From: a virus
Reading direction: 5' to 3' (one strand)
DNA: 64,000 nt
IMG/VR virus record: IMGVR_UViG_3300049571_000380
Location: 64,001 to 128,000 of that record
Shown: piece after piece, positions 5,671 through 61,880 of the stretch
Numbering within the stretch: position 1 is the stretch's first letter
Layout: the number at the start of each line of letters is the position of its first letter
Program-made: the position numbers and the translations under genes
Notes under the pieces: generated by a model
The model's input: the letters and a program-made list of their open reading frames with translations, nothing else
The model's database searches: none
Told to the model about the DNA's origin: nothing

Positions 5671-5918
5671 AATTCTTCCTCCTCGCCACGGCGCCGCAGC
5701 TCGTTCACGTGGCTGCCGTCGTACCTGACCTTGTCCAGACCGGCCACTCCGAGCGAAGTGACCATTTGGTCCACCTCGTGCAGCGCCGCTGCCGCGAGCT
5801 GCGGGTTCTCGAACTGGCCGGTCTTCTGCACGCGCTCGTACTCGTCGATCAGCAGGGCGCTGGCCACACGGAGCTGGCGCAGGCTGATCTCCAGCGCACG
5901 GGCACGCTCGTCACTCAT
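5667..5918 (-). CDS. Hypothetical protein
   Basis: Overlapping start/stop with neighbours, RBS GAGGAAG. Confidence 0.6.
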   Translation of the reverse strand: MSDERARALEISLRQLRVASALLIDEYERVQKTGQFENPQLAAAALHEVDQMVTSLGVAGLDKVRYDGSHVNELRRRGEEEEL

Positions 5919-44067: not shown

Positions 44068-45565
44068 GGCCGCCGACCGGCGCCGGGTAGTTGTCGATCC
44101 ACTTCAGGCCGCCACGGTCCAGGTGCTCCTGGGCCCGGGTGACCGCCACGTAGTGGATCATGGCCTCGTGCCGGTCGATGACCCCCGGCTCCATCTCCTG
44201 CGTGAGCGGGTTCTCGAACGGCTCCGGCTCGAAGAAGTCGTCGCCGATCTGGACCCTCTTCCACTCCAGACCCTTGATCGAGTGGCACGTGGTGACCGCG
44301 ACGTCGTGCGGCTCGTTGTACCGGGCCATGCGGTTGCACGCGGCGATCAGGTCGCTGATGCCGTACACGTTGATCAGCTTCACGATCGCCTTGAGGTGGC
44401 CGCCGCCGGGCTCCTTGGTGTACTCAACCAGCTCGGCCCAGTTGTCGAAGGCGCTCAGCTCCAGGCTCCGCGCCTTCTTGCCCGCCATCAGGTCGCGAGC
44501 CGCGTAGGCGATGTCCAGGATCTGCTTGGTGCCCTTGACCATGGCGACCCGCTTGCCCGCCTTCAGGTAGCTGATCGCGTAGGTCATGGCGCCCGCGTTG
44601 GTCCGGGTGAGGACGACGTTCGGGTCCTCCATGTCGTCCTCGGTCACCAGGTCGGAGATCGAGGAGAGGCCCTTGATCGTGACACCGGTCTCGGTGTGGG
44701 GCAGGTGCTTCATCGCCTCCTCGGCGACACCGTCACCGAAGCGGAAGGACTGCGTGAGGTACAGGCGCGGGGCGTCGTACTTCATGATCTGGTCGGAGGC
44801 GCCACGCCAGGCGTACAGGGACTGCGCCGGGTCGCCGATGAGGATGCCCTGGGCGTGCTTCTGGTTCGCCAGGAACTTCATCGTGGCGTCGTTGCTGTCC
44901 TGCGCCTCGTCGATGAGGACGATGCCGTAGCCGTAGTCCTTGCCGCTCTCGGCGACCAGCTTGAAGGCGTGGTTCATCGTGAAGCGGAGCTGCGAGTTCG
45001 GCATGATCGACTGCTTCCACAGGGCCCACGCGAGCCTTGCAATGAAGGAGCGGGCCGCCGCCATGGCCGCCTCGCCGGGACCGGCGATCGGAATGTACAC
45101 GTCCTTCTCGGTGATCTGGACGTGGTCCGAGTTGCAGAACCGCTCGATCGTGTCGGAGGCGAGCCGGGCCTGGGTGAACCCGTCGAGGACCAGCTTGTCG
45201 CCGAAGTCCTTCGGGGTCAGGTCCAGCTTCTTGGCGACCTCCTTGGCGGGAACCGCCGGGGCGTCGATCGCCATGCGGTCCTTGTGCGTGTTGGCGTACG
45301 CGCGCCAGGCGAGCTGGCTGGTGGTCCGGACGTCGAACCAGGTGACGCCCGCCCGCTTGAACTTCGCCTCCGCTTCCTTCCGCGCCTGCGTGTTGTAGAC
45401 CAAGTAGAGGCCCTTGAGGCCCTGGTTGACCAGCGTGGACCGCATCGCCACCGCGATGCCGAGCGCCGTGGCGCTCTTGCCCGAACCGGCCGGGGCCACG
45501 AGGGAGAAGTTCTCACCCTTCAGGGCGAGGTCGATCGCGGCCTGCTGTTCGTCCGTGAACTTCAC
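44051..45565 (-). CDS. UvrD/Rep-like SF1 helicase
   Basis: FTDEQ, APAGSGKS, IDEAQD, GDPAQSLYAWRGA, LTQSFRFG, TCHSIKGLEW, YVAVTRAQ. Confidence 0.92.
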   Translation of the reverse strand: MKFTDEQQAAIDLALKGENFSLVAPAGSGKSATALGIAVAMRSTLVNQGLKGLYLVYNTQARKEAEAKFKRAGVTWFDVRTTSQLAWRAYANTHKDRMAIDAPAVPAKEVAKKLDLTPKDFGDKLVLDGFTQARLASDTIERFCNSDHVQITEKDVYIPIAGPGEAAMAAARSFIARLAWALWKQSIMPNSQLRFTMNHAFKLVAESGKDYGYGIVLIDEAQDSNDATMKFLANQKHAQGILIGDPAQSLYAWRGASDQIMKYDAPRLYLTQSFRFGDGVAEEAMKHLPHTETGVTIKGLSSISDLVTEDDMEDPNVVLTRTNAGAMTYAISYLKAGKRVAMVKGTKQILDIAYAARDLMAGKKARSLELSAFDNWAELVEYTKEPGGGHLKAIVKLINVYGISDLIAACNRMARYNEPHDVAVTTCHSIKGLEWKRVQIGDDFFEPEPFENPLTQEMEPGVIDRHEAMIHYVAVTRAQEHLDRGGLKWIDNYPAPVGGHALGK

Positions 45566-45852
45566 GCCTTCTCCGTTTCCGTTTCTGCATCTCCTGGGCC
45601 CGGAACGAAATCGCCGGGCCACATCTCGAAGAACTCGGCGAGTTGATCGAGTTCCTTCGCATCCCACGTACCCGCCTGGATCTTCCTCGGCAGGTACGCT
45701 TCAGAGACTCCGAGGTGCGTTGCCAGCGCCTTCAGTTTCTCCGAGTACACCCTGCGGACCGTGCTGCCAGCCAGTCGATCTCGGTCCTCGCTGACCATAA
45801 TGGCCAGCAGATTCTCGACGGTCCGGCTGATGGTCGCGCCTGTGCTGAGCAT
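45562..45852 (-). CDS. XRE/Cro-like HTH regulator
   Basis: LKALATHLGVSEAYL...WDAKELDQLAEFF; ATG after GAGGAGG. Confidence 0.7.
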   Translation of the reverse strand: MLSTGATISRTVENLLAIMVSEDRDRLAGSTVRRVYSEKLKALATHLGVSEAYLPRKIQAGTWDAKELDQLAEFFEMWPGDFVPGPGDAETETEKA

Positions 45853-47826: not shown

Positions 47827-48540
47827 CTACATGCTGAGCAGAACCAGCAGAGCGTTCGAGGCCATCGCCACCCCGATCGCGGGTCCCTTCTCTGCGGCCG
47901 ATCCGGAGGAGACGGTGCCGCCCAGGAGTCGGATGTTCCACCAGCGCTTGCCCTGGATGGTCAGCGGCCAGAAGGCCGGGACCCCGGCCGTCGTGCATCC
48001 GTCGGCCACCACGTGACTCGCGTATCCGCCGGTCACGGCCAGGGCCATCAGCCAGGGATCCAGGTAGATCACCGATCCGACGGCCGCGACGGCGGCGGCC
48101 AGGACGACCAGGCCGATCGTCTTCCGGTACAGCGGCCAGAGCATGAACACCCCGAGCGCCGCCACGGCCCCGCAGGCGATGGGCGAGACCATCGTCAGGA
48201 TGTAAGCCAGGGCTCCCACGGCCACCGAGACGAGCAGAGTATGCGTCAGGGTCCGGTGGTAGGGGTCCTGGCCGCGAGCCTTCCGGAAGGTCAGGTAGCT
48301 CCTGTCGCGGCCGAGCGCCGTGTTCTTCACGACCGCTTTGCACAGGCTGTGGACAGCCTTGTGGACAGGCTTGCCGAGGGCCTTCGTGGCGCAGGCGTTG
48401 GGGTGGTCAAGGTCCGGCATCAGGGCGAAGCCAGCCGAGACCGCCGCCATGACCGCGCCCTGGATGATGCTGGCGTGCTGGGTGAGCACGAGGCCGACCG
48501 GCGCCGAGGCGCCGATCGCCGCGTGCACGGTCCCCCTCAC
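47827..48540 (-). CDS. Membrane metal-dependent hydrolase (YdjM-like)
   Basis: H...G, LMPDLDHP, HRTLTHTL, SHVVADGCT.AGVP..WP. Confidence 0.85.
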   Translation of the reverse strand: MRGTVHAAIGASAPVGLVLTQHASIIQGAVMAAVSAGFALMPDLDHPNACATKALGKPVHKAVHSLCKAVVKNTALGRDRSYLTFRKARGQDPYHRTLTHTLLVSVAVGALAYILTMVSPIACGAVAALGVFMLWPLYRKTIGLVVLAAAVAAVGSVIYLDPWLMALAVTGGYASHVVADGCTTAGVPAFWPLTIQGKRWWNIRLLGGTVSSGSAAEKGPAIGVAMASNALLVLLSM

Positions 48541-48866
48541 TGGATGATCCGGGCACTGATGACGTTCGGGCTCTTGGTGACCGTCGAGGCGAAGGTCTGC
48601 GCCGAGATCCACTCGTCACCGCCGTAGGACGCCTGCCAGGTGAAGTCACCCAGGGACTGCGGGCTGTCGAGGATCGTGTCGTCGTCGGCCGGGCCACGGC
48701 CCACATCGACCTTCACCCGGTCGAGCTGCATCGTGTCGCCCGGCAGCGGCAGGGACAGCATGTCGGGCCACGCGACCTCGACTGCGACCTTGCGCCTGCG
48801 GCTCGTCGCCTTCAGCAGTTCGACCTCCAGCAGGACGACGCCCGCCCTCTTGTTGCGGTTGCCCAT
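48537..48866 (-). CDS. Hypothetical protein
   Basis: RBS GGAGAAG; GTGA coupling. Confidence 0.6.
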   Translation of the reverse strand: MGNRNKRAGVVLLEVELLKATSRRRKVAVEVAWPDMLSLPLPGDTMQLDRVKVDVGRGPADDDTILDSPQSLGDFTWQASYGGDEWISAQTFASTVTKSPNVISARIIQ

Positions 48867-49477: not shown

Positions 49478-49786
49478 CTACTCGGACGGAGGGCCGTACT
49501 TGTCGGTCCACTCCGCGATCAGTTCCTCGTGCCGCTCTTCGTCCCGGAGCTTCATCAAGGCGTAGTCGCCGAAGCCCTTGCCGGTGCCGTTGTCCCTGCG
49601 GATTTCGACATAGACCCGCAGGCGCTTGTCCCCCTCCGCGTACTCCGCCTTGACGACCTTGTCCAGGGCGGAGTTTTCGTCGGGCGCTTCGACGGTGACC
49701 TCGTCGTGCTCCAGATCCTTGATCTTCATCTTGTTGCCCAGCAGGGGCATCCTTCGGCGCATCACGCGCACGGTGTATTTGGCCAT
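49478..49786 (-). CDS. Hypothetical protein
   Basis: TGATG coupling with NlpC/P60 gene. Confidence 0.6.
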   Translation of the reverse strand: MAKYTVRVMRRRMPLLGNKMKIKDLEHDEVTVEAPDENSALDKVVKAEYAEGDKRLRVYVEIRRDNGTGKGFGDYALMKLRDEERHEELIAEWTDKYGPPSE

Positions 49787-50385
49787 CAGGCAACCCTCGT
49801 AGCTCCGAAGTAATCAGACATGTAGTGCACGTCGTTGACGCGGATTTTCGTGCCGGTGCGCGGCGCGTGAAGCATCTTGCCATCGCCGATGTAGATGCCC
49901 ACATGGTGAATGGATCTCCAGTTCCCCTTCTGGCCGAAGAACACCAGATCGCCCGGCTTCAGTTCGCCCCAGGAGGGGTGGTTGTTCGTAGTCCTGTACT
50001 GGTCGTTGGCCACGCGAGGGATCTGGATGCCCGCCTTCGCGTATGCCGCCTGGGTGAGGCCGGAGCAGTCGAACCGCCCACCCTGCGCAGCCGTGCCTTC
50101 GCCGCCCCAGAGATAGGGGACTCCGATCTTCGTGCGGGCGTACGCGATGGCCGTGGCCGCCGCGTTGCCGGACCTGGAGCTGGACACCTTCGAGTCCTGC
50201 TCCTGTCGCTTCGCCTCCTTGGCCCGCTGCTCCGGCGAGTACCAGTTGATCTTCTCGATCTCGGGGTTGGGGTTCGCCGTGGCGTTCGAGATCGGGGCCG
50301 CGTTCAAGGCGGCGCAGGACGACGTGACGGGCACGAGCAGCGCCACGGAGGCGACCGCCAGGGCCGCTCGCTGGGTCCGGTTCAC
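49786..50385 (-). CDS. NlpC/P60 peptidoglycan hydrolase, probable lipoprotein
   Basis: Signal VTSSC; GVPYLWGG, FDCSGL, PGDLVFF, HHVGIY. Confidence 0.92.
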   Translation of the reverse strand: MNRTQRAALAVASVALLVPVTSSCAALNAAPISNATANPNPEIEKINWYSPEQRAKEAKRQEQDSKVSSSRSGNAAATAIAYARTKIGVPYLWGGEGTAAQGGRFDCSGLTQAAYAKAGIQIPRVANDQYRTTNNHPSWGELKPGDLVFFGQKGNWRSIHHVGIYIGDGKMLHAPRTGTKIRVNDVHYMSDYFGATRVA

Positions 50386-51017
50386 TGCTCGTACTTCCTC
50401 GTCTTCTGCTCGATCATCTTCACGTAGGTGTAGGTCTCGCACTTGGCGAAGGAGCACGGCGGGACGCCGTTGTACTCCTTCACCCGGAAGCCGCCCGCGT
50501 TGTATCCGGCGAGCATGTTCTTCCAGGTGGGGCCGGGTATGTCCTTCAACCCTTTCGCCAGCTTGCAGTCCAGGGACGCGGCGGACGGAATGGCGTCATC
50601 GGGGTCGTACTTGTTCCGCTTGCCGTCACCGTCCGCATCGATTCCCTCAGTGGCCCACGTGCTGTCGATGAACTGGGCCATCCCCTTGGCCGAGGCCGGG
50701 GAGTCCTGGCGGCCGTCGATGACCTCGGGCTTGAACCCCATGCTTTCCTGGTCGAGCTGGGCCGCCAGGAGGGCCGGGGTGAGCGTCGGGCAGAGGTTGC
50801 CCCACTTGTTGATCAGGTCTTCCCAGCGCTTCTTCGGCACCGATCCGGGCTTGATCGGGGCAGAGGTGCCCGTGAACTTGTAGTCCGCGTCGGCCTTCTG
50901 CTTCGGGGGTGCCACGACGGACGAGGCAGACGGGACAGCCGGAATGAAACCGGTGACGGCCTGAACCGCACCCACCGCGAAAAAGATGCCGACGAATGCT
51001 CCGCCTGCTCTGCGCAT
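50382..51017 (-). CDS. Secreted lytic transglycosylase (SLT-like)
   Basis: N-terminal signal; LAAQLDQES, SAKGMAQFIDSTW, DPDDAI, LAGYNAG, ETYTYV. Confidence 0.9.
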   Translation of the reverse strand: MRRAGGAFVGIFFAVGAVQAVTGFIPAVPSASSVVAPPKQKADADYKFTGTSAPIKPGSVPKKRWEDLINKWGNLCPTLTPALLAAQLDQESMGFKPEVIDGRQDSPASAKGMAQFIDSTWATEGIDADGDGKRNKYDPDDAIPSAASLDCKLAKGLKDIPGPTWKNMLAGYNAGGFRVKEYNGVPPCSFAKCETYTYVKMIEQKTRKYEQ

Positions 51018-51042
51018 CACGTTCCTCCCTTCTCCGGGCTCC

Positions 51043-51069
51043 ACTCTAACATTGACCTAGGCCAGTCAA
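51043..51069 (-). promoter_or_regulatory. Promoter/operator: GACCTAGGCC inside a TTGAC...GTCAA inverted repeat, -10 TAGAGT
   Basis: TTGACCTAGGCCAGTCAA at 51052-51069, upstream of the transglycosylase operon. Confidence 0.65.
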
Positions 51070-51100
51070 CAAGCCAAACCTGTACTGGAGTTGAAACACA

Positions 51101-51132
51101 GAACGGCCGGACCCCGAAGAGTCCGGCCGTTC
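51101..51132 (-). terminator. Terminator hairpin
   Basis: GAACGGCCGGAC-N8-GTCCGGCCGTTC. Confidence 0.75.
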
Positions 51133-51144
51133 GAACCGCCCACC

Positions 51145-51723
51145 TCAGTGGAACGGGCTCTGCATGAGCTGCGGGATCCAGTTGCCGATCTGGAGCGTGA
51201 TCTCGGCCCAGGTGCCGCCGCCGAGCGGGAAGAAGAACCCGCAGATGGCGCCGTACATCAGATCCTGCTTGTCGTCGTCCTTGTTCCGCATCGCGAGGAA
51301 CCCGAGGAAGAGGCAGATGCCACCGGCTCCGATGTCGGACAGGATCGGCCAGTCGGCCAGCGCCATGACGAGCCCCTGGAACCACCCGACCATGTCGACG
51401 ACGAATCCACCGGTCGAGCTGACGATCGACGTCATGGCCCACATTCCCACGAGGAATGTCATTGCGGACCGCCAGTCGAACCCTTCGCTCGGGCCTCCGT
51501 GGACCTTCGTCATCATGCGGCTGGTCGGCTGCTCCACAGCCTTCGTCATCAGGGCCTTGGTCAGACCTCCCCAGAGGAACATCTGCTGGCCCTTCTTGTT
51601 CCCCTTGATGCAGAGGAACGAGAGCACCAGCAGGATGATTCCGAAGCCCGCCATCGTGGTGTGACCCACCCACGAGTTCTCCGGAACGTTGATCTGCTGC
51701 TGCTGCGTGATCGCCAGAATCAC
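51145..51723 (-). CDS. Multi-pass membrane protein, Streptomyces plasmid transfer/spread-like
   Basis: Several hydrophobic Gly-rich segments, GGTW motif; in GntR-adjacent operon. Confidence 0.6.
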   Translation of the reverse strand: MILAITQQQQINVPENSWVGHTTMAGFGIILLVLSFLCIKGNKKGQQMFLWGGLTKALMTKAVEQPTSRMMTKVHGGPSEGFDWRSAMTFLVGMWAMTSIVSSTGGFVVDMVGWFQGLVMALADWPILSDIGAGGICLFLGFLAMRNKDDDKQDLMYGAICGFFFPLGGGTWAEITLQIGNWIPQLMQSPFH

Positions 51724-51957
51724 TTTTCCCTCACCTTCCCTGTGGGGCCGCCCTCCAGCGACCCCACAGATTCACCGGCCGGGACCGGCGGGCTTCAGTA
51801 TCGGAAGCCCGTCGAGGTCGTCGTCCTTCTGGAACACGACTCGTCCCCTTTCCAAGCGGCTCGTTCGTCCGCTTCGTACCTTCGGCCGGATGCGAACCGA
51901 CTTCCGGCCGGGACGAACCCGGCTGGGCTGCCACACGGCAGCGAAGGCCCTCGTGCA

Positions 51958-52920
51958 TCACCAGGCGGCGCCCGGTGCGTAGAGCAGGATCCCCGTGACG
52001 ATCGACGCCAGCGGGATCATGAGCACGGCGTGGAAGATGCCCGGCCCCATGCTCTGGGACTTCTCGCGCTCTTCCTCCGACATGGCCGACCGCTCACGGT
52101 TGAGCCGTTCGATCCGATCGAAGGCCCACATGGTCGCGTAGAACGCCATGCAGAACAGACCGGCGACCCAGAACTGCCACACCTGGAGGGTCCACGGCGA
52201 GCCGAAGATCGCCGTCACCTCGTCGGGGTACGCGACCCCCACGAAGAGGAGGACCGGAATCAGCCAGGCAGAATGCGTCAGCCACCTGATGCTGAAGGCG
52301 ACCATCCGCCCCCGGTACGTGCTCTGGGCCAGGTATCCGGCGACCTGATTCCGGATGAACATCAGGATCATGGGGGTGAGCCCCATGATCGCCGCCCAGA
52401 TCAGGCTGCCGAACCGGTCCGACTCGTACGCCATGCCGATCGTGTCCCTGAACCACCTGCCAGGGCCGTTCAGGATTCCCCATTCCGTGGTCGAGGTGCC
52501 GAAGCGGATTCGCTCGTACAGAGCGGTCAGAATCTGCGGTCCGACAGCCCACGACATCACCGAGGAGATCATGAACGAAGTGACGTACGGCCGGGTCTTT
52601 CCGTTGGCCGGGTCCAGTCCGTTCTTGATGGCGGCGGCTGCCGCCTGAACGGGCTTCATCACTTCGGCCGCGAGCTTCTTCTCCTCTGCGACCTTTTCCT
52701 TGACAGGGGCCAGGATCTTCTCGGCCTCCTGGCGTACCTTTTCCTTCTTCTCTTCCGCCTTGCCCTGACTCTCGGTCCACCGGGTGGTGGCCGAACCGAG
52801 CTTCCCCTTCAGCTTCTTGAGGTCGCCCTTCAGGGTTCGTGGCGGCTTCCGCTTCTGGCCCTTGAGGTGCACGGTGGGGGCCTTCGTCGGCTTCGGCGGA
52901 ATGGCTGCCTTCGTCGCCAC
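51958..52920 (-). CDS. Multi-pass membrane protein with Lys-rich N-terminus
   Basis: Basic coiled N-terminus followed by about 5 TM segments. Confidence 0.7.
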   Translation of the reverse strand: MATKAAIPPKPTKAPTVHLKGQKRKPPRTLKGDLKKLKGKLGSATTRWTESQGKAEEKKEKVRQEAEKILAPVKEKVAEEKKLAAEVMKPVQAAAAAIKNGLDPANGKTRPYVTSFMISSVMSWAVGPQILTALYERIRFGTSTTEWGILNGPGRWFRDTIGMAYESDRFGSLIWAAIMGLTPMILMFIRNQVAGYLAQSTYRGRMVAFSIRWLTHSAWLIPVLLFVGVAYPDEVTAIFGSPWTLQVWQFWVAGLFCMAFYATMWAFDRIERLNRERSAMSEEEREKSQSMGPGIFHAVLMIPLASIVTGILLYAPGAAW

Positions 52921-52935
52921 GTTTCTCCTTCCGTG

Positions 52936-53100
52936 TTACGGCTTTCCATCGGAAGCGAGTCCGATGTTGGCCTCTACGGTTGCCTCCAACCGAGCGATAT
53001 CCTGGTTGGCAGCGAAGTCAGAAAGCTGCCCCAGAGAAGCCTCCGGCACGTGCTGATCCTGCTGCACAACCGGCTCCTGAACCTCCCCGTTACCTTCCAT
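52936..53100 (-). CDS. Small acidic protein (54 aa)
   Basis: ATG after GAGAGGG; first gene downstream of the operator. Confidence 0.45.
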   Translation of the reverse strand: MEGNGEVQEPVVQQDQHVPEASLGQLSDFAANQDIARLEATVEANIGLASDGKP

Positions 53101-53154
53101 GTCGCCCTCTCTTCGGTCCCTGCTGGCGTTGTGGAGTCCAGCATGACACAATAC

Positions 53155-53164
53155 GGCCTAGGCC
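53155..53164. promoter_or_regulatory. Operator palindrome GGCCTAGGCC between divergent genes
   Basis: Perfect 10-bp palindrome just 3' of a CACAAT -10-like box and 23 bp before the GntR start. Confidence 0.75.
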
Positions 53165-53187
53165 ACAAGCGCAGACGAGGAGAAAGA

Positions 53188-53922
53188 GTGAGCGAGCAGA
53201 TTCCCAAGTACCGTGCCATTGCGGCACATTACCGATTCAGGGTCACGTCCGGGGAGCTGGAGCCCGGTACCCCGCTGGAGTCTCGCCGGAAGCTCGCGAA
53301 GATCCACAAGACCTCGCGAGTCACCATCGACAAGGTGGTGGAACTGCTGACGGCCGAGGGGATCCTGGAGCCGTCGGACGGCAATCGGCCTCCGATCGTC
53401 GCCGACATCTCGCGTCGCACCGCGACCGTTCAGGACCGCGTCGGCAACGCCGCCGTCAGCGGTCGGGCGCTGGGGGCGAAGGAGACTTCCCGGATCCTGC
53501 GAGTGGAGGAAGTTCCCTGCCCCTCCGACATTGCCCCTCTCCTGGGGGTGCGGCCCGGTGACAAGGTGATCCTGCGGGAACGCCTGAACCTGGTCGAGGA
53601 CAAGCCGGTGGCCACGGGTCACTCGTACTACCCGCCGGAGGTCACCAACCTGACGCCGGAGCTGCGGACCCCGCAGTCCATCCCCTCGGGTTCGCGCGAA
53701 TTGGCGGCCGAACGGATGGGGTCGCGCCAGAAGGATCTGATTCCGGTGATCACGTCGCGCCTGGCGACGGACCGAGAGAGGGAACTACTGGAGCTGAAGG
53801 GTGCGTACGTGGTCGTCACGCAGACGGCACGCCGGATCCTCCTGGCCAACGGCAAGGTCGTCGAGGTCGCAGTGAAGATCTGCGAGGGCAACCGGCCGGT
53901 CTCGTTCCACGTGCCCCTGTGA
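53188..53922 (+). CDS. GntR/HutC-family repressor (wHTH plus UTRA), KorA/TraR-like
   Basis: PKYRAIA...GELEPGTPLES.R.LA...SRVTI...L..EGIL; UTRA RERL...DKPV..GHSYYP; GTG after GAGGAG; isolated plus-strand gene. Confidence 0.92.
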   Translation: MSEQIPKYRAIAAHYRFRVTSGELEPGTPLESRRKLAKIHKTSRVTIDKVVELLTAEGILEPSDGNRPPIVADISRRTATVQDRVGNAAVSGRALGAKETSRILRVEEVPCPSDIAPLLGVRPGDKVILRERLNLVEDKPVATGHSYYPPEVTNLTPELRTPQSIPSGSRELAAERMGSRQKDLIPVITSRLATDRERELLELKGAYVVVTQTARRILLANGKVVEVAVKICEGNRPVSFHVPL

Positions 53923-53943
53923 GGAACCCATGCGGATGTGCAG

Positions 53944-53973
53944 AGCCCCCGTCGCAACGGTGCGACGGGGGCT
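53944..53973. terminator. Bidirectional terminator
   Basis: AGCCCCCGTCGCA-ACGG-TGCGACGGGGGCT between convergent genes. Confidence 0.8.
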
Positions 53974-53982
53974 TTCGCGTTC

Positions 53983-54708
53983 TCAGGGCTCGACCAGTTT
54001 GAAGGCGTCCTCGCCCCGGGCCAGCTCCTCCTTCATGGACTCGTAGTCCTCGTGACGGCACTGCGGGTACAGCCAGATCAGATGCGCCCGCATGTCGTCG
54101 TTCCAGCCTCGTTCGGTCTCGTCGTCGACCTTCACGCATTCGGCCGGGTTCACTCCGTACAGCCAGGTGAGCGCACCGAAGCCGATCCAGTGCCGCTGGC
54201 CGTCGTTGACGGACGTGATCCAGCCCGGGACGATGGCGTACTTCTTGCCCGCCAGCCCGCGCGGGAAGAGCGGACAGTCGCTTGGCTCGGGCTCGGGCTG
54301 ACGGGTTTCCTGCGCCAGTCGGTGAGCCAGGGATCCCTTCACTCCGGCTGGTTTGAACGGAGTGCGCCGCTTCGCCTTCAGGCGTTGGTCGTCCGGGGCC
54401 CAATCTTCGGGAACCGGCTTCCAGTCCTTGTCGGCTTTCCTCTTCTCGGGGTCCCACAGCGATGCCCCTCCGGCCTTCACCCAGCTCCGCACGTCGGCAA
54501 GATAGGTGGCGGAGAAAATCAACCCGCGCCTGTACTTGTCCATGGCAGAGAACCGGGTGTCGAGAACCATCCAGGACCCGAACTCCGGCTTTCCTTCATC
54601 GGCGTCGGAGTAGTACGCCTCGACGACGATGTGGTCATGGCCGTGCACCCGGTACTTCTTGTCGTACCGGCCGTTCGACGGGAGCCGGTGCAGCAAGGGT
54701 TCAGCCAC
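53983..54708 (-). CDS. Hypothetical protein
   Basis: Overlaps upstream stop; high GC3. Confidence 0.6.
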   Translation of the reverse strand: MAEPLLHRLPSNGRYDKKYRVHGHDHIVVEAYYSDADEGKPEFGSWMVLDTRFSAMDKYRRGLIFSATYLADVRSWVKAGGASLWDPEKRKADKDWKPVPEDWAPDDQRLKAKRRTPFKPAGVKGSLAHRLAQETRQPEPEPSDCPLFPRGLAGKKYAIVPGWITSVNDGQRHWIGFGALTWLYGVNPAECVKVDDETERGWNDDMRAHLIWLYPQCRHEDYESMKEELARGEDAFKLVEP

Positions 54709-55363
54709 TGGCCGCCACCACGTTCCCGCTGAGGTCCACGAGAGCCACCTGGCCGGGGGCCTTCTTTACCGCGAACTCCACGGTTCCGGTTGCCGTCTCG
54801 CCGGGCTCGATCCTGCGGGACCCCGGGGCCAGCGTCCCCTCCCCGATCACGGCCGGGCGCCCGTCGCCCTTCACCATCGACGACATGACGACCACGGTCT
54901 CGTCGGTGTTGTTCACGACCGTCACCTTCACGACCGCTCCGACGTCGCCCGAGCCGTTGGGCACCGCAGTGAGAACCACCGTCTTCGGCGCTTCGGGAGT
55001 GGGTGCACTGGAAGCCTCGGCGCGGTCCTGGGCGCCCTCAGAGGGGCCACCCCCGGCCGCAGGGAGGAAGCCTTCCCGGGACGCCGAGGAGGAGCCCGTA
55101 GGGCTGTCTGCCGGGCTGTCGCCGCCGTGAGGCATGACGGTGAAAACCAGGACCCCCACGGCAGCGGCTCCAGCGGCTCCGAGAAGCAGGCTCCTGCGCC
55201 GGTCCGGCTTCTGCGCCTGCGGCTCTTCCTCCTGAGTCGGAGGAGCGGGCGGTGGCGGAGGAGGTGCGACGGGTTCGGGTTCCGGATCCCATCCGATCGC
55301 GGGTTCAACCCGGTCCGGCTCGCCTTCCTGTCGCGGTGCTGACGTGTTCCACCAGTCGGTCAT
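54701..55363 (-). CDS. Membrane-anchored protein with Pro-rich N-terminus and extracellular Ig-like domain
   Basis: ATG after AAGGAGG; TM LLLGAAGAAAVGVLVF; VKVTVVNNT...IEPGETATGTVEF. Confidence 0.7.
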   Translation of the reverse strand: MTDWWNTSAPRQEGEPDRVEPAIGWDPEPEPVAPPPPPPAPPTQEEEPQAQKPDRRRSLLLGAAGAAAVGVLVFTVMPHGGDSPADSPTGSSSASREGFLPAAGGGPSEGAQDRAEASSAPTPEAPKTVVLTAVPNGSGDVGAVVKVTVVNNTDETVVVMSSMVKGDGRPAVIGEGTLAPGSRRIEPGETATGTVEFAVKKAPGQVALVDLSGNVVAASG

Positions 55364-55569
55364 TCCCCGCCTCCTTTCCTTACCTTCCGGGCCACGTTCA
55401 TCCCCACGCCCGTTGCCGCCCCTGCGATCACGGCCCCGGTTGCGGGGACTCCGATCGCCGAGAACGTGGCGGTGTCCAGTGCGGCGCCCAGCAGGGCGGC
55501 CGTGGTCACGCTGTCGTCGACATCCTCGACCGCCTTGGCGATGGCCCAGGTGACGACCTTCTCCATCAT
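55360..55569 (-). CDS. Small hydrophobic glycine-zipper-like protein
   Basis: AALLGAALD...IGVPATGAVIAGAATGVG; ATGA coupling on both sides. Confidence 0.6.
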   Translation of the reverse strand: MMEKVVTWAIAKAVEDVDDSVTTAALLGAALDTATFSAIGVPATGAVIAGAATGVGMNVARKVRKGGGE

Positions 55570-55880
55570 GAGACGGGCCGAAGCGGCAGGGTCGCGCTGT
55601 AGGCGACCAGGTACTCGTAGCGCCACATGGAGTGCTCGCCGTCGTCGGTTCCCGTCTCGACGATGGTGGCCTCCTGGATGCGATACGCCATGCCGAGCCG
55701 GTCCCGGTACAGGGCTCCCGGCGGAAGCATCGGAATCGTCGGGTGCTCGCGCCCACCCTTCGGCGAGATGGTGATGAGCGCGTGCCGGATTTCGCTCTCC
55801 GGGTCGTCGTCCATCATCGGCTGGATCACAACGTAATTGGCGGACCCGGTTCCTCCGGATGCCTCGATTCGCCACGCCAT
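55566..55880 (-). CDS. Hypothetical protein
   Basis: ATG after GAGGAG. Confidence 0.6.
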   Translation of the reverse strand: MAWRIEASGGTGSANYVVIQPMMDDDPESEIRHALITISPKGGREHPTIPMLPPGALYRDRLGMAYRIQEATIVETGTDDGEHSMWRYEYLVAYSATLPLRPVS

Positions 55881-55940
55881 GTCATTCTCCTCTCCTACTT
55901 CAACACAACCAGAATACAGGCAAGTTGGGGAAAACAGGAA

Positions 55941-55962
55941 GCCCCCGCCCGAAGGCGGGGGC
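55941..55962 (-). terminator. Hairpin after SpdB-like gene
   Basis: GCCCCCGCC-CGAA-GGCGGGGGC. Confidence 0.7.
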
Positions 55963-55980
55963 CACTGCGGTGCGGGCGTG

Positions 55981-57144
55981 TCAGCCCTGGTTCATCCAGC
56001 TCGCGAGACCGTTCTCGACGAACCACTCCAGCGGGAAGGCGGTGGTCGCCTCGGTCACCCGGGGGGCGCCCGTCTGGTTGGCCTTCGCGAAGGCGGCCTT
56101 GGTGATGCCGCCCTCGGCCGCGTCGGCGGCGTAATAGCGCGCCGCCAGGTTCACCTTCCGGCGCTCGGCGTCGGTCAGGTTCAGGCCCTCCAGGCTGATG
56201 CCCTCCGCGTCGTCCTCCCCCTCGAAGGAGACACCGCCCTTGGCGAGCTGCGGCCGGGGGCTGGAGACGACCTGGCCCTGCACCAGGTTGAAGCCGAGGG
56301 GCGACCGCAGGCGGATGTCCTGCTCGGCGTCCATGCGCTCCATGGTGATCTCGGTCTGGGTGCGCATCGTCTCGATCTGGAGCTGGGCGTTCAGCCGCTG
56401 GCGCATCGCCTTGAGCTGGTTGGCGCCCTCCAGCTCGGCCTTCTCCGCCTCGAACTTCGCGTCGCGCTCCAGCTTCTCGCGCTCGATCTGGGCCTGGACC
56501 CTCTCGCGCTCGATCGCCGCCCTGCGACGCTCCTCGGCCAGGGCCGCCTCGTGCTCGCGGTTCTTCAGGATCATGTCGGCCTCGTGCTGCTCGGCGGTCG
56601 CCTCGGCGTCGGCCCGCGTGAGGCGGGACTTCCGCTTCTTCGCCGCCATCTGGGCCTTCTCCTCGTCCGTCAGGTCCGTCGGGTCCTTCAGGCCGTTCAG
56701 CGCCATCGTCCACGTGAGCTTCGTGAAGACCGGGAGCACCGCCGCGAAGGCCGCCGCACCGCCGCCGATCGTCGTTCCGTGGTAGCCGAGCAGGGCCGCG
56801 ACGAACAGGGCCTCGACCCACCCGATGACCGGGAGGAAGTCGAAGGGCTTCTTCCGCCTGGGCAGCTTGCCCATCAGCTTCTGACCCTGGTACTGGGCCA
56901 CCATCGTCGCGCTCCAGACGACGTCCATCGTCGCGGCGGCCGAGAGGGAGATCAGGCTGAGCCCGCCCAGCTTGTCGATGGTGAGCGCGTCGACCTTGTA
57001 CAGGTCGATGAAGGACCAGGTGCTCCAGGCGAGGGAGCCGATCGAGAGGATGCTCGCCATCAGAACCAGAACGGAGAAACGCTTCGGTCCGTCCTCGTCG
57101 GTGTCGACCTTCGCGACCTTCTCGGTGTTTTCCGTCGTGTCCAT
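55981..57144 (-). CDS. SpdB-like Streptomyces plasmid spread protein (4 TM plus coiled coil)
   Basis: LAWSTWSFIDL...AAATMDVVW...IGW...LLGYHG...AAVLPVFTKLTW, then long coiled coil. Confidence 0.65.
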   Translation of the reverse strand: MDTTENTEKVAKVDTDEDGPKRFSVLVLMASILSIGSLAWSTWSFIDLYKVDALTIDKLGGLSLISLSAAATMDVVWSATMVAQYQGQKLMGKLPRRKKPFDFLPVIGWVEALFVAALLGYHGTTIGGGAAAFAAVLPVFTKLTWTMALNGLKDPTDLTDEEKAQMAAKKRKSRLTRADAEATAEQHEADMILKNREHEAALAEERRRAAIERERVQAQIEREKLERDAKFEAEKAELEGANQLKAMRQRLNAQLQIETMRTQTEITMERMDAEQDIRLRSPLGFNLVQGQVVSSPRPQLAKGGVSFEGEDDAEGISLEGLNLTDAERRKVNLAARYYAADAAEGGITKAAFAKANQTGAPRVTEATTAFPLEWFVENGLASWMNQG

Positions 57145-57210
57145 GTCTGGGTTTCTCCCTTTCCGAAAACCCCCCGGTTTCTGAAACCTCGCTTGGGGGC
57201 GTTACGCATG

Positions 57211-57240
57211 ACTGTGCCAGCGTGGCCTAGGCCGTGTCAA
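57211..57240 (-). promoter_or_regulatory. sigma70-type promoter with operator in the spacer
   Basis: Minus strand TTGACA-N18-CACAGT with GGCCTAGGCC at 57224-57233. Confidence 0.75.
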
Positions 57241-57408
57241 GCGAACCTGGGCCGGATCCCGGAAGTAGTCCGTTCTGTCCGAATTCACTGGGATTCGAGA
57301 ACGATGCCACGAACTGCCGCCCCACCATGTCCCCATTCGTCCGATTCGAGTGGAGAAGGACCACCCTTCGTTCGGCCTCTTCCGGAGGGGCGGCAGCTCT
57401 TCCGCGCT

Positions 57409-57840
57409 TCAGGAAGAACGGGATCCACGGAAGAGGCCACGAAGGAAGCCCTTCCGCTCGCTGCGATGCCGTCCGGAAGGGGCGGGAACCTCGCCGGAAA
57501 CCTGGTGACCAGCACCATCGGGATCGTCTGCCTCGATTCGTCCGGTTTCGTCTTCCAGAACCCACTCGGAAGGCGGTTCGATCGCGGTCATGTTCAGCAC
57601 GTAGACGTTCGCCCCGCGAAGCCCGGTGGAAGAGAAGCCCGGCTCCGTACGCAGCAGTCCGTTCCGGGTGAGTTCGGCCCTGGCCCGCACCAGGGCGCCC
57701 TGGGTCAGTCCGCTGTCCTTGAGGAGGGCGGATGTCGCCACCTGGGCCCGCCCGATTTCGTTCACGTGCTTCAGTAGGGCATCCAGCAGCTTTCCTGCCT
57801 CGTGGCCCAGTGCGCTTCGGTCGTAGGCGTTCTCGCTCAT
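57409..57840 (-). CDS. Winged-helix DNA-binding protein
   Basis: ATSALLKDSGLTQGALVRARAELTRNGLL...GANVYVL. Confidence 0.7.
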   Translation of the reverse strand: MSENAYDRSALGHEAGKLLDALLKHVNEIGRAQVATSALLKDSGLTQGALVRARAELTRNGLLRTEPGFSSTGLRGANVYVLNMTAIEPPSEWVLEDETGRIEADDPDGAGHQVSGEVPAPSGRHRSERKGFLRGLFRGSRSS

Positions 57841-57943
57841 GCCGTCACCTTTCCAGTGGTCCGTGTCGGGCATCAGCGTACGGCGAAGGGCCGCCAGAAC
57901 ATCGTCTGGCGGCCCTTCAGGTAGGCCATCTCTGGTGGCCTGG

Positions 57944-59392
57944 TCACCCAGCCCAGGGGTCGTCGTTCAGGTCGCTCAGCCAGCGGCCCACCGTGGAGGC
58001 GTCCACGCCGAGGACACGGGCGCCTTCGGCGCGGCTCAGGTGCCCCTGCTGAATCTCTCCGTGCAGCCACGCGATGACGGCCGAGCGGGCTTCCTCCTTC
58101 TCCTCGGGCGTGAAGCCGGACTTCGGCGCCTGGGAGGCGTGGTACGTGAGCACGACCATCGGGTGACGGCCGACCGGAACCTGGGGCGTCTCGCGCCCCG
58201 CTTCTGCGGCCTCCTGGAGAACGGGAACCAGCTCGGGTGCCGCCTCTTCCTGGACGGGCTCCACGTCCGCCCCTGCGACCTCCGCTGCGGGCTCGATGTC
58301 GGGCGCCACCACCCACCAGTCCTCGTGCTCCGGATCGCTGCTGGCCGGGTAGGGCCCGGCCTGGGCGAACTGGACCTGCAACTCCCCCTGCAAGGGTTGC
58401 CGCACGATCTCCTTCTCCAGGCTGACCTGCACGGATTCCCTTGCATCGGGGGCCTCGTGCAAGGCCGTCTGCACGGAGGTCCGCAAGGGGGTGGTGGGAG
58501 CGTCCGGGATCAGTCCGTGATCACTCTCGGTGACACCCGAAACGTCCACGTTCGTCCACCCCGAAGTGGCCTGCTGCATGGGTTCCTGCATGTCGGGCAC
58601 AGGCTCCTTGATCAGCGAGTATGCCGGTTCTTTGGCGGCCTCCTGCGAGGTCTCGGTCCGGAAGTCGTCGGCGATCGAGGCGACGGCCTCGAACGACTGG
58701 CCCGACTTGTCCTGGTCTGCGACATCCGAAGTGGCCTGCTGCATGACCTGCGGCAACACCGTCGTAGGTGCCTCCGAGGCAGTTACGACACGGGTTTCCG
58801 CCTCGGACGAGATGGCCTGCTGCACCGGCTCCTGCAAATCCGACTGTTCGAATCGAGCAGTTTCGACCGAATCTTCCGAATCGTCCCCACCGTCTTCGGC
58901 TTCTTCGCCGGAATCCGAGTCTTCGACCTGCGGGTTTTCGAGGATCTGGGTGGGGCTCTCCGGCGAGGGGTCGACGAGCGTCTCCTTCTCGCCATCCTCA
59001 CTTTCCGTGTCCCCTTCCGTCTCGCCGTTCTCGGTGGCCCACGGCTCCTCGCGGCCCAGCTTCCGCTCGCGCGCGGAGAACACGGCCAGCCCGATCACGG
59101 TGAGGAGGATGGCCGCTCCCAGCGCCTGCGGAACGCTCGTCGAGTGGCCGCCCCTCTCCGGGCCCCCGGTCGCCGCACTCAGGACCACCCACACCGGGAT
59201 GAGCACGATGAACGCCCGGCCGCCCTTGGCCCACACCGAGCGGTGCTCGCCGTTCTCGTCCAGCTCCAGGACCCAGTTCTTGCTTCCGTGCAGCCCCCTG
59301 CGGAACATCCTGCCCAGCCCCTTGGAGCCGTTCTGGACCTCCATCGACTGCCTGATTCCCGCCGCTTGCGGGACCTTCACGCGGATCGCCAT
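57944..59392 (-). CDS. Membrane-anchored protein with long acidic linker and C-terminal HTH
   Basis: ATG after GAGGAGG; 2 TMs, Glu/Gln/Pro-rich region, LSRAEGARVLGVDASTVGRWL. Confidence 0.75.
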   Translation of the reverse strand: MAIRVKVPQAAGIRQSMEVQNGSKGLGRMFRRGLHGSKNWVLELDENGEHRSVWAKGGRAFIVLIPVWVVLSAATGGPERGGHSTSVPQALGAAILLTVIGLAVFSARERKLGREEPWATENGETEGDTESEDGEKETLVDPSPESPTQILENPQVEDSDSGEEAEDGGDDSEDSVETARFEQSDLQEPVQQAISSEAETRVVTASEAPTTVLPQVMQQATSDVADQDKSGQSFEAVASIADDFRTETSQEAAKEPAYSLIKEPVPDMQEPMQQATSGWTNVDVSGVTESDHGLIPDAPTTPLRTSVQTALHEAPDARESVQVSLEKEIVRQPLQGELQVQFAQAGPYPASSDPEHEDWWVVAPDIEPAAEVAGADVEPVQEEAAPELVPVLQEAAEAGRETPQVPVGRHPMVVLTYHASQAPKSGFTPEEKEEARSAVIAWLHGEIQQGHLSRAEGARVLGVDASTVGRWLSDLNDDPWAG

Positions 59393-60608: not shown

Positions 60609-60827
60609 TCATACCGTCTCTACGCGGGTGACGTGGGTGTAGACAGCCTGGTAGATCTCACGGACGTCCTCGGCGTCCACGTCGTCGAGTTCCACCAGGA
60701 CGGTGTGGTGCTCGCCCGTCACGTCGGTGCACGGCAGGCCGTTCACCGGGCACGGGCCGGTCTTCTTGTCGCGTGGGTTGTGCTCCGGGTTCTTCGGGAG
60801 CTTGACCGTGACCAGGTACTTCGCCAT
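60609..60827 (-). CDS. Small protein with H...C...C...H motif
   Basis: TGATG coupling with NlpC/P60 gene. Confidence 0.6.
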   Translation of the reverse strand: MAKYLVTVKLPKNPEHNPRDKKTGPCPVNGLPCTDVTGEHHTVLVELDDVDAEDVREIYQAVYTHVTRVETV

Positions 60828-61294
60828 CAGCCGTTGATCCTTCCGAGGTAGACCTTCCGGCCGCCGTACTTGTACTCGGAGACGGGGGCGACGACGACCT
60901 TGTACCCCCGGTAGGAGCCGGAGTTGGCGTTCAGGATCTTGTCGCCGCCGACATAGATGCCCACGTGCTTGATGTTCGAGGATGAGGTGCCGAAGAAGAC
61001 CAGGTCGCCCTTCGCACGCTTGCTCCAGGAGAGCTTCGAGGACTTGTTGTACTGGCCCTGAGCGGTGCGCGGGAGCGTCTTGCCGTTCTTCTTGTACGAG
61101 TAGTACGTGAGGCCCGAGCAGTCGAAGGCGTTCGGACCGGCGGCGCCGCCCTTGTAGGGGTCCCCCTTCTGGGCGGTGGCCGTACTCAGGGCCTTCGTGC
61201 GTATCGGGGTCGCCGCACTGGAGCTGGGGGCCACGGTCAGCACCAGCCCTCCCGCGAGCGCGGTGGACAGGGCGACGGTCGTGAGCTTCTGCAT
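60827..61294 (-). CDS. Second NlpC/P60 hydrolase, secreted
   Basis: Signal peptide ...SSSA; GDPY..G, FDCSGL, GDLVFF, HVGIY. Confidence 0.92.
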   Translation of the reverse strand: MQKLTTVALSTALAGGLVLTVAPSSSAATPIRTKALSTATAQKGDPYKGGAAGPNAFDCSGLTYYSYKKNGKTLPRTAQGQYNKSSKLSWSKRAKGDLVFFGTSSSNIKHVGIYVGGDKILNANSGSYRGYKVVVAPVSEYKYGGRKVYLGRING

Positions 61295-61354: not shown

Positions 61355-61819
61355 CTACCAGCTCATTCCTTCGGGGCTGAAGTAGACGGGGATGCCTGCC
61401 GCTCGCGCCTTGTCCACGCAGTCAGCGGTGCCATGCGTGGGGTGCTCGCCGGGCAGGCACCAGGGGGCGTTCTTGCGGCAGGGGAGCGCCCAGGCCATCA
61501 GGGCGTCCATACCGGCGTCGACCATCTCCTGGTTGCGCAGGAAGCCAGCCTGGTTGCCGTGGCGCCCCCAGTCGGCCGGGTGCGGGTCCTCAAGGACCAG
61601 GTGGTCCGGGAGCCGGGCCGTCCAGTCGCTGACGTGCCGGTCGACCCCCCGCTTGGCCTTGCCGTTTCTCACGAGCAGCCGCTTGCGGTGCCGCAGCATC
61701 TGCGTGAGCGGGATCCATACGGACGACCTGGTGGCCCAGTCCCTGGACCCGGCCACCCCCAGAACGAATCGGGGGTTGGCGCTCAACCATGCTGCCAGTT
61801 CGGCATCTTGGGCGTTCAC
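61355..61819 (-). CDS. SLOG-superfamily protein (DUF2493/YspA-like)
   Basis: VAGSRDW, G.A..GVD, ADWGRHGNQAGFLRNQEMV, HGTADCV..AR.AGIP. Confidence 0.85.
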   Translation of the reverse strand: MNAQDAELAAWLSANPRFVLGVAGSRDWATRSSVWIPLTQMLRHRKRLLVRNGKAKRGVDRHVSDWTARLPDHLVLEDPHPADWGRHGNQAGFLRNQEMVDAGMDALMAWALPCRKNAPWCLPGEHPTHGTADCVDKARAAGIPVYFSPEGMSW

Positions 61820-61835: not shown

Positions 61836-61880
61836 GGCCTAGGCCGATCCTACCCGATGGCCTACTTCTCAGGTAGGCCA
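61836..61880 (-). promoter_or_regulatory. Operator GGCCTAGGCC (61836-61845) next to -10 TAGGAT, plus split half-site inverted repeat
   Basis: Palindrome between -10 box and RBS; TGGCCTAC-N7-GTAGGCCA at 61858-61880. Confidence 0.7.

Follow-up and report, generated by a model that had tools for sequence, protein, structure and literature searches.

A conserved block of SpdB-like, KorA/TraR-like and wall hydrolase genes in a large Streptomyces siphophage, and its possible role in spread through the mycelium

We analysed a block of genes in a 64,000-nucleotide stretch of viral DNA, referred to below as the window, which corresponds to bases 64001-128000 of the record IMGVR_UViG_3300049571_000380. 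The record is a 192,484-bp virus genome that is rated complete by CheckV. A first-pass annotation, made from the letters of the window, had described the region 49786-59392 as a plasmid-type transfer and spread module inside a complete virion-encoding genome; the last part of this description has to be corrected, as the window covers only one third of the 192-kb phage genome. The module consists of 13 genes (window 49786-59392), all of which are on the minus strand with the exception of a GntR regulator. The transglycosylase, the NlpC/P60 protein and the divergent GntR/UTRA gene named in that annotation are confirmed by Pfam, and its bounds fall on gene boundaries. It had also counted five or more membrane proteins, and hydropathy gives six (192, 320, 220, 69, 387 and 482 amino acids). 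As detailed below, the 387-residue protein resembles the SpdB proteins of Streptomyces plasmids, the regulator resembles KorA and TraR, and a Tra-like ATPase is encoded elsewhere in the genome. The reading that we tentatively favour is that these genes help phage DNA to spread within an infected mycelium. Genes were called on the basis of GC content at third codon positions, start sites were set from orthologues, and membrane segments were assigned by hydropathy. The features are as follows (window coordinates, unless stated otherwise):

49786-50385, minus strand: NlpC/P60 peptidoglycan endopeptidase (PF00877, 2e-27), start taken from orthologues
50382-51017, minus strand: SLT-type lytic transglycosylase (PF01464, 1e-8, and PF13406) with a QES motif
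51101-51132, minus strand: terminator-like hairpin (14-bp stem) separating the 192-residue protein gene from the SLT gene
51145-51723, minus strand: 192-residue multi-pass membrane protein with about four transmembrane segments, a conserved core member
51958-52920, minus strand: 320-residue protein whose N-terminal helix is basic and whose C-terminal part is a helical membrane bundle (four to five transmembrane segments), also a conserved core member
52936-53100, minus strand: gene for a 54-residue product, first in the leftward operon; orthologues are JustBecause gp97 and EhyElimayoE gp100
53155-53164: GGCCTAGGCC palindrome within the 87-bp divergent intergenic region, a candidate GntR operator
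53188-53922, plus strand: GntR/UTRA regulator of the HutC type (UTRA PF07702, 6e-14; GntR PF00392, 4e-7; both above the cut-off)
53983-54708, minus strand: 241-residue soluble protein with a phrog_7644 C-terminal domain, variable and missing from Satis-type phages
54701-55363, minus strand: 220-residue single-pass protein (one transmembrane segment) with a weakly DUF4352-like outer domain
55360-55569, minus strand: 69-residue Gly/Ala-rich protein with a probable transmembrane segment, judged by eye
55566-55880, minus strand: 104-residue conserved protein
55940-55963, minus strand: terminator-like hairpin, downstream of the SpdB-like gene
55981-57144, minus strand: 387-residue SpdB-family protein with four transmembrane segments in its N-terminal part
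57224-57233: second GGCCTAGGCC palindrome, 80 nucleotides upstream of the SpdB-like start
57409-57840, minus strand: 143-residue protein, possibly winged-helix (the BLAST match to KorA is only weak, E 0.09; no Pfam match)
57944-59392, minus strand: 482-residue protein with two transmembrane segments, a long acidic region and a helix-turn-helix-like C-terminal end
47827-48612, minus strand: YdjM-family membrane hydrolase (PF04307, 2e-16), beyond the region first noted but part of the conserved block
44051-45667, same orientation as the block: UvrD-type helicase
60827-61294, minus strand: second NlpC/P60 gene (PF00877, 3e-23), without a signal, located after the SLOG gene
61355-61819, minus strand: SLOG/YspA (DprA-like) gene (PF10686, 4e-6)
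61836-61845: third GGCCTAGGCC palindrome, 17 nucleotides upstream of the SLOG/YspA gene
Genome 140094-141395, the module's strand, about 17 kb past the module and outside the window: pIJ101-Tra-like FtsK ATPase of 433 amino acids

The window also carries virion genes, i.e. a major capsid protein gene at 795-2108 and long open reading frames on the plus strand. At the nucleotide level the region 49786-59392 shares about 78% identity with the cluster BM Streptomyces phages; JustBecause and Kela are collinear with it over 96% of its length, and Satis, Kradal, EhyElimayoE and Quantum over 63%. No nucleotide match was found among 72,556 plasmids. The phages of cluster BM are siphophages; their heads are prolate and their genomes measure ~185 kb (PMC6687918). 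In culture they were isolated as plaque formers (PMC6687918, PMC10652959), and one published member is described as having neither an integrase nor a repressor and as unlikely to be temperate (PMC10652959). Because the block is collinear with these phages and matches no plasmid DNA, it is native to the lineage rather than an inserted plasmid. A recent plasmid insertion was thus rejected as an explanation, the block being ancient and syntenic throughout the phage lineage. In other words, it is part of the conserved backbone of this large Streptomyces siphophage and lies in the leftward arm, where the UvrD-type helicase gene is also located.

The conservation extends well beyond cluster BM. The block is collinear in eight IMG/VR contigs (46-251 kb) as far as each of them extends, with 39-88% identity in the SpdB-like protein, and even distant relatives of the 320-residue protein (about 30% identity) keep the same neighbourhood. 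The distant gene order is an SpdB_N protein, a GntR/UTRA gene on the opposite strand, in some loci a small gene, the homologues of the 320- and 192-residue proteins, SLT or M23 plus NlpC/P60, YdjM and the UvrD-type helicase. Among the numbered related loci, the 192-residue homologue directly follows the 320-residue one in L009 and L011-L013, and syntenic YdjM homologues are found in L011, L012, L013 and L025. There are exceptions: GntR/UTRA is absent from L013, and the gene at the SpdB position of L011 is unmatched. The core, which persists in the same order at 25-50% protein identity, is formed by the SpdB-like protein, GntR, the 320- and 192-residue proteins, the hydrolases and YdjM. The genes of the 241-, 220-, 143- and 482-residue proteins are variable between lineages or missing in distant relatives. 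In L011 (a 280-kb contig, GCA_040299285.1) a gene for an Acb2/Tad1-type anti-defence sponge lies at 5453-5704, a few kb from GntR.

The 387-residue protein is built of an N-terminal SpdB_N domain with four transmembrane segments, a linker with the motif DP..LTDEEK, a coiled coil and a phage-specific C-terminus. Its residues 20-194 match Streptomyces plasmid proteins of ~300 amino acids (34-37% identity, tblastn E-values of 1e-19 to 3e-27), whose genes lie upstream of TraB in pCQ3, pSAM1, an S. platensis plasmid and an S. zaomyceticus plasmid. In the first three of these the operon of the matching gene is headed by a divergent GntR gene and has TraB as its last gene; in the S. zaomyceticus plasmid a like operon closes with a TraB-type gene, while the regulator annotated upstream of it is a different helix-turn-helix protein. 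In profile comparisons with hhalign the phage family matched the plasmid family (99.9% probability, E 9e-35, 189 columns), which in turn matched the family of pIJ101 SpdB (93%, E 2.5e-7, 133 columns); compared directly, the phage family and pIJ101 SpdB gave P 2.4e-4 over about 100 columns. Three other membrane families of the module, used as controls, each stayed below 1%. The positions common to the phage family and SpdB are D..W, GW, H and LP..K..W, followed by an LT motif, and the alignments to SpdB span the N-terminal part only.

The PF27080 family, which a second annotation source names SpdB_N, is precomputed for pIJ101 SpdB, for 9 of 45 phage-family proteins and for the proteins of L009, L013 and L025. 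These assignments are the precomputed annotation of relatives, and the window's own 387-residue protein has no precomputed match. On these comparisons the protein is SpdB-like in its N-terminal domain, so that the label it was given in the first-pass annotation stands, upheld by profile comparison with Spd families and by PF27080 in relatives. A tblastn search of 50,697 phage records gave no match for pIJ101 SpdB and, for the 387-residue protein, matches in six cluster BM records only. The 27-kb scaffold L024 (JBAZOQ010000009.1), labelled as a Candidatus Paceibacterota metagenome-assembled genome and thus binned to a CPR bacterium, also encodes an SpdB-like N-terminal domain with 33% identity to that of the phage; the scaffold probably comes from an actinobacterial mobile element or phage and was mis-binned.

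The regulator gene is divergent from the operon of the 54-, 320- and 192-residue products. Over its full length the protein is 36-38% identical to the GntR proteins of pSAM1, pCQ3 and the S. platensis plasmid, and 31% identical to pIJ101 KorA. In a search of 5.8 billion proteins its best matches outside the phage lineage were Streptomyces GntR proteins with ~41% identity. The context of one of these was inspected: its gene lies on an integrative element of the chromosome that encodes a serine recombinase and Prim-Pol, and is divergent from an operon with a DUF2637 protein and large open reading frames, i.e. the usual layout of an actinomycete integrative and conjugative element (AICE). As judged from sequence, the assignment of the regulator to the KorA/TraR kind, with its nearest non-phage relatives in plasmid and AICE transfer regions, is solid. 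The plasmid loci compared here moreover show that the nearest non-phage relatives of the SpdB-like protein and of GntR adjoin each other in transfer regions. The kinship to Streptomyces plasmid KorA/TraR and Spd genes that had been claimed earlier is therefore real for these two proteins, and the analogy with pZL12 is apt as far as the homologues are concerned, the best plasmid matches being the pZL12-type plasmid-prophages pCQ3 and pSAM1.

Perfect copies of the palindrome GGCCTAGGCC occur six times in the genome as compared to 0.8 expected, and all of them are intergenic and upstream of minus-strand genes. Three of the six are in or beside the module, at the promoter regions of three operons. 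The palindromes at 53155 and 57224 are at the same places in JustBecause and EhyElimayoE, and the latter adjoins a TTGACA on the gene strand. Operators of HutC-type regulators have a similar shape, e.g. the DasR core GGTCTAGACC. Taken together, this points to a putative KorA/TraR-like circuit over the membrane and wall genes, with GGCCTAGGCC as the candidate operator; the SLOG gene and the second NlpC/P60 gene probably belong to the same regulon as the block. The other three copies, at genome positions 30558, 39280 and 135512, precede minus-strand genes for proteins of 116, 182 and 102 amino acids. We also note that CCTAGG is rare in the genome outside the palindromic sites (25 occurrences vs 66 expected from base composition), which may reflect restriction avoidance.

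The first-pass annotation had stated that no TraB/FtsK translocase is visible in the window. This is true of the window but not of the genome, where a search for traB and parA beyond the window yields the Tra-like gene listed above and no ParA. The Tra-like protein is 32% identical to the FtsK domain of pIJ101 Tra over 356 amino acids (E 4e-45), and up to 39% identical to the Tra proteins of other small Streptomyces plasmids. It has a Walker A motif (GASGSGKS) and a Walker B-like IDEG. Its C-terminus contains a weak IclR-type helix-turn-helix match (residues 382-425, E 4.5e-4, below cut-off), a location that corresponds to the MarR-like end of pIJ101 Tra. A phmmer search against PDB sequences gave no match. 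The gene is present in all five related virus records and in the NEAU-Y11 contig described below (43-98% identity), and in the records of sister phages it is labelled an FtsK-like DNA translocase. Wherever a related genome was checked, the SpdB-like, KorA/TraR-like and Tra-like genes were found together, even where identity falls to 39-44%. There are signs of mosaicism: the Tra-like protein is 87% identical to that of the Satis group and 46% to that of JustBecause and Kela, while the module DNA shows the opposite affinity. The 8-mer CGTCGAGC is found in four copies within 250 bp at the 5' end of the Tra-like gene (genome 141173-141414); with 36 copies genome-wide it is a common 8-mer and a weak clt candidate at best.

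As for the remaining module proteins, the NlpC/P60 protein has a lipobox-like signal with a Cys as well as DCSG and HH motifs and is probably an exported lipoprotein. The SLT protein has an N-terminal signal anchor, and the stop codon of its gene overlaps the NlpC/P60 start; both hydrolases are predicted to be Sec-exported. Searches of Pfam, NCBIfam and PHROGs were uninformative for the 192-, 320-, 104-, 143- and 482-residue proteins, and the 192-residue protein also had no match in plasmid transfer regions. The 320-residue protein is represented by 26 cluster representatives (clustering at 50% identity) among 1.84 billion proteins; it had no tblastn match in plasmids, and its AlphaFold2 model (predicted local distance difference test score, pLDDT, 67.5) had no Foldseek match in the PDB at E 0.001 or better. 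For the 482-residue protein there are two weak matches, HTH_28 at 0.002 and phrog_3638 at 0.004, and an ESM Atlas search gave no usable match. An RRR-containing, signal-like segment of the 220-residue protein weakly fits a twin-arginine signal model.

In the genome as a whole we found no tyrosine or serine integrase (PF00589, PF00239), no ParB (PF02195), no DUF2637 (PF10935), and no VirB4-like or VirD4-like ATPase (PF12846, PF02534). ParA was likewise not found, neither by PF13614 and PF01656 nor by tblastn with the ParA proteins of relatives, which speaks against the idea of a plasmid-phage. A type IV secretion system was rejected, since VirB4 and VirD4 are absent. The endolysin gene (genome 127827-128909, i.e. 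window 63827 onward) is on the plus strand, opposite to the module, and is followed downstream by a homologue of a gene that is annotated as a membrane protein in EhyElimayoE. The endolysin protein is 99.7% identical to JustBecause gp116, whereas the adjoining module DNA is only ~78% identical, which suggests a recent exchange of the lysis cassette.

A related element has a different gene content in this respect. The assembly of Streptomyces sp. NEAU-Y11 (GCA_024295805.1) includes a contig, JANCLX010000014.1 (L025), of 185,382 bp that is a complete cluster BM-like phage genome and contains the module. Its GntR protein is 70%, its capsid protein 89% and its Tra-like protein 43% identical to those of the window's phage. 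There is an exact 127-bp overlap between the two contig ends, which align to neighbouring stretches of the window's phage genome, in keeping with a circular assembly. Directly downstream of GntR the contig has a true ParA/MipZ ATPase gene and one for a 309-residue partner; ParA-like genes are also found in the relatives L011 and L021. The NEAU-Y11 circle may mean that some lineages are carried as episomes, or simply that the culture was chronically infected. The plasmid idea of the first-pass annotation thus stays alive in part, for relatives and not for the window's genome.

Several known systems can be set beside the module. In pIJ101 of Streptomyces lividans (korA-tra-spdA-spdB-kilB), KorA (31%), Tra (32% over 356 amino acids) and SpdB_N have counterparts in the phage, and pIJ101 Tra also ends in a winged helix, to which the weak helix-turn-helix match of the phage protein corresponds. 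In contrast to the single operon of pIJ101, the phage genes are dispersed over about 25 kb; homologues of SpdA and KilB, the C-terminal domain of SpdB and the N-terminal third of Tra are missing, no clt was identified, and the phage has wall hydrolases and two novel membrane proteins besides. The pSVH1 system (TraR/SpdB3-Spd79-SpdB2/TraB; PMC4447253) shares with the phage a divergent GntR-type regulator, a four-helix SpdB, an FtsK-like motor and an involvement of peptidoglycan. However, the pSVH1 proteins bind peptidoglycan and no hydrolase is named among them (PMC4447253), whereas the phage has hydrolases. The pSVH1 operator consists of 14-bp TTTGGTACACAACT repeats as opposed to the GGCCTAGGCC palindrome of the phage, and function has been demonstrated for the plasmid system only. 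The closest non-phage SpdB-like (34-37%) and GntR (36-38%) proteins are those of pCQ3 and pSAM1, which resemble the phage also in encoding virions: pCQ3 has capsid, tail, integrase, ParAB and traA/traB genes, and pSAM1 a terminase gene beside a TraB-type gene. These elements are of the type of pZL12, a plasmid-prophage credited to Zhong et al. 2010 (as cited in PMC3583192 and PMC4487206). Unlike the phage, they are circular plasmids (85-93 kb) that have ParAB and an integrase and encode full-length TraB/TraA within the same operon; the phage has none of these.

Among phages, the members of cluster BM (Satis, JustBecause, Kela, Kradal, EhyElimayoE, Quantum and Frankenweenie) have the same block in the same order, together with the annotated translocase. 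Their records differ from our description in that the module genes are labelled as hypothetical, membrane or helix-turn-helix proteins and SLT as a glycosyltransferase; none of the cluster BM records examined annotates a relationship to SpdB or to KorA/TraR. The phages phiC31 and VWB are temperate, with genomes of ~40-50 kb. They are cited in PMC4447253 as having putative SpdB2 homologues, and so share with our phage a Spd-type gene and the idea of intramycelial spread, but no Tra-like or KorA-like partners are described for them in the relevant passages of that paper (PMC4447253). Since the tblastn matches of the 387-residue protein are confined to the six cluster BM records, it represents a different branch from these homologues. 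Among Gram-positive type IV conjugation hydrolases, ICEBs1 CwlT and pIP501 TraG combine a glycosidase with an NlpC/P60 or CHAP domain. The phage similarly pairs a muramidase/transglycosylase with an NlpC/P60 peptidase, both exported beside multi-pass membrane proteins; in contrast to the CwlT and TraG systems, it has no VirB4 or VirD4 ATPase, and its two wall activities are on separate polypeptides.

The reading that we favour, with a probability of roughly 0.42, is that the module encodes a repressor-timed apparatus at the hyphal cross-walls, through which the Tra-like motor may move phage DNA into neighbouring compartments. A GntR dimer would bind the GGCCTAGGCC palindromes and keep the membrane and wall operons silent up to a given moment or signal, a restraint that may be likened to the control of toxic tra and spd genes by KorA and TraR. 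Once expressed, the hydrolases would thin the wall locally at the cross-walls, the SpdB-like protein and its membrane partners would make a channel there, and the Tra-like motor would pump replicating double-stranded phage DNA into the next compartment. A single adsorption event would in this manner seed several compartments. This apparatus is favoured because the module fits the picture known from pSVH1, with wall hydrolases and two membrane partners added. In that plasmid SpdB2 is a four-helix pore-former that binds double-stranded DNA and peptidoglycan, oligomerises, contacts TraB and is required for intramycelial spreading, properties known for SpdB2 of pSVH1 only (PMC4447253), and the spread operon is controlled by the GntR-type TraR (PMC4447253). 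Starting from the homologies, the conservation and the common palindrome, which are observed, we infer the formation of the channel, its location and the movement of DNA. The spread would take place within an already infected mycelium, as distinct from plasmid maintenance or mating, and this is the best, albeit unproven, reading of the block. The earlier proposal that the element moves both as virions and by intramycelial spread or conjugation is retained in its mycelial part; a conjugating plasmid-phage is unsupported, given the lack of an integrase, ParA, ParB, VirB4 and VirD4.

A number of findings weigh against a cross-wall apparatus. Plasmid homologues are known for only two of the 13 module genes (SpdB-like and GntR) and for the distant Tra-like gene. 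When six module families (NlpC/P60, SLT, 192, 220, 320 and part of 482 amino acids; the 104-, 143-, 241-, 69- and 54-residue products were left out) were compared by hhalign with 50 families of five plasmid transfer regions, nothing exceeded 3%. The C-terminal domain of SpdB (PF27079) is found in none of the 45 phage-family proteins as opposed to all listed SpdB proteins, so the phage family is a divergent branch of SpdB and not its orthologue. The Tra-like protein scores 19-20 bits with the Pfam FtsK_SpoIIIE profile against a cut-off of 24, it has no hydrophobic or membrane segment, and its alignment starts at residue 187 of pIJ101 Tra, the first ~185 residues being without an equivalent. Its gene is 17 kb distant, with neither a perfect GGCCTAGGCC copy nor the 8-bp core upstream. 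FtsK-like genes are also present in ~57-kb Streptomyces phages without a tblastn match to the SpdB-like protein, and the presence of the Tra-like gene in itself is therefore no proof of a link to the module. A genome-wide scan for clustered 8-mers gave no convincing clt-like repeat array, and a sigma-70 consensus scan of the region gave no promoters. Finally, the functional role ascribed to the phage members is drawn from analogy with the plasmids.

Other explanations account for parts of the same evidence. The block might remodel the envelope, either for superinfection or plasmid exclusion or for altered septation or sporulation, with the SpdB-like protein as a pore or scaffold and the Tra-like ATPase working separately in replication or segregation. 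Such a role, which we consider unlikely, would agree with the lack of plasmid counterparts for most module proteins, with the distance of the Tra-like gene and the missing palindrome and core upstream of it, and with the FtsK-like genes of phages whose records lack an SpdB-like tblastn match; but the SpdB-like, KorA/TraR-like and Tra-like families co-occur in all related genomes checked, and in plasmids the three act together (PMC4447253). An accessory lysis function seems improbable. Here the SpdB-like protein would be a holin-like pore, and SLT and NlpC/P60 would aid the endolysin on the thick Streptomyces wall. SpdB2 did give T7 lysozyme access to the wall and formed pores in bilayers (PMC4447253), there are two or three wall hydrolases, and the PHROG matches of SLT and NlpC/P60 are lysis and tail-lysin families. 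However, a separate endolysin gene and a putative membrane gene are on the opposite strand from window 63827 onward, the hydrolases carry their own export signals and therefore need no holin, and the block is co-oriented with the UvrD-type helicase gene under a repressor-type palindrome.

We see only a slim chance that the element is literally a plasmid-phage like pZL12, persisting as a plasmid and conjugating between mycelia by a TraB-type process as well as forming virions. It is true that the best plasmid homologues sit in pZL12-type plasmid-prophages, that the ParA/MipZ-bearing NEAU-Y11 relative assembles as a 185-kb circle and that L011 and L021 have ParA-like genes. Nevertheless, the cultured cluster BM phages are plaque formers and one is described as free of an integrase and a repressor (PMC6687918, PMC10652959), the Tra-like protein has no membrane domain, and terminal repeats also give circular assemblies, so that the NEAU-Y11 contig could stem from a chronic infection. 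For the window's genome the literal plasmid-phage reading fails, because integrase and partition genes (ParA, ParB) are absent. Least probable of all, and very improbable in itself, is a chance neighbourhood of unrelated membrane genes and a captured regulator with no joint function. The 241-, 220-, 143- and 482-residue members would suit it, being variable or missing in distant relatives. The block is more than chance, however, because it is collinear in eight contigs and its core (SpdB-like, GntR on the opposite strand, 320, 192, hydrolase, YdjM) is kept in order at 25-50% identity; in addition, one palindrome is common to three operons and its position is conserved.

Some elements of the cross-wall reading have been published before. 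SpdB2 homologues on actinophages and the idea of intramycelial phage spread were proposed by Thoma et al. 2015 (PMC4447253), and pZL12-type plasmid-phages with full TraB operons are likewise known. As compared to the sister-phage records and the literature examined, what is new is the trio of SpdB, KorA and Tra relatives together with wall hydrolases in a phage lineage deemed unlikely to be temperate, and also the candidate operator, the deep synteny and the ParA-bearing circular relative. A bolder proposal, which we regard as doubtful, is that the KorA/TraR-controlled SpdB channel, the hydrolases and the Tra motor might constitute a lineage-wide bacterial "movement system" that drives replicating phage DNA across hyphal cross-walls for an advance without virions, and that in the lineages with ParA the same genes might support long-term episomal carriage.

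Phages are usually assumed to depend on lysis and re-adsorption for their spread. In the multicellular Streptomyces, plasmids own a dedicated system that moves double-stranded DNA between compartments. The module supplies compact candidate partners for SpdB as well as a candidate phage repressor-operator pair for Streptomyces genetics. The hypothesis is directly testable, given that sister phages (Satis and JustBecause) are in culture and S. lividans is a tractable host. If it is true, this would be the first virion-independent cell-to-cell route of a bacterial virus, comparable to the movement proteins of plant viruses, and it would change our view of plaque growth, of the containment of phages by hyphal development and of the ecology of soil phages.

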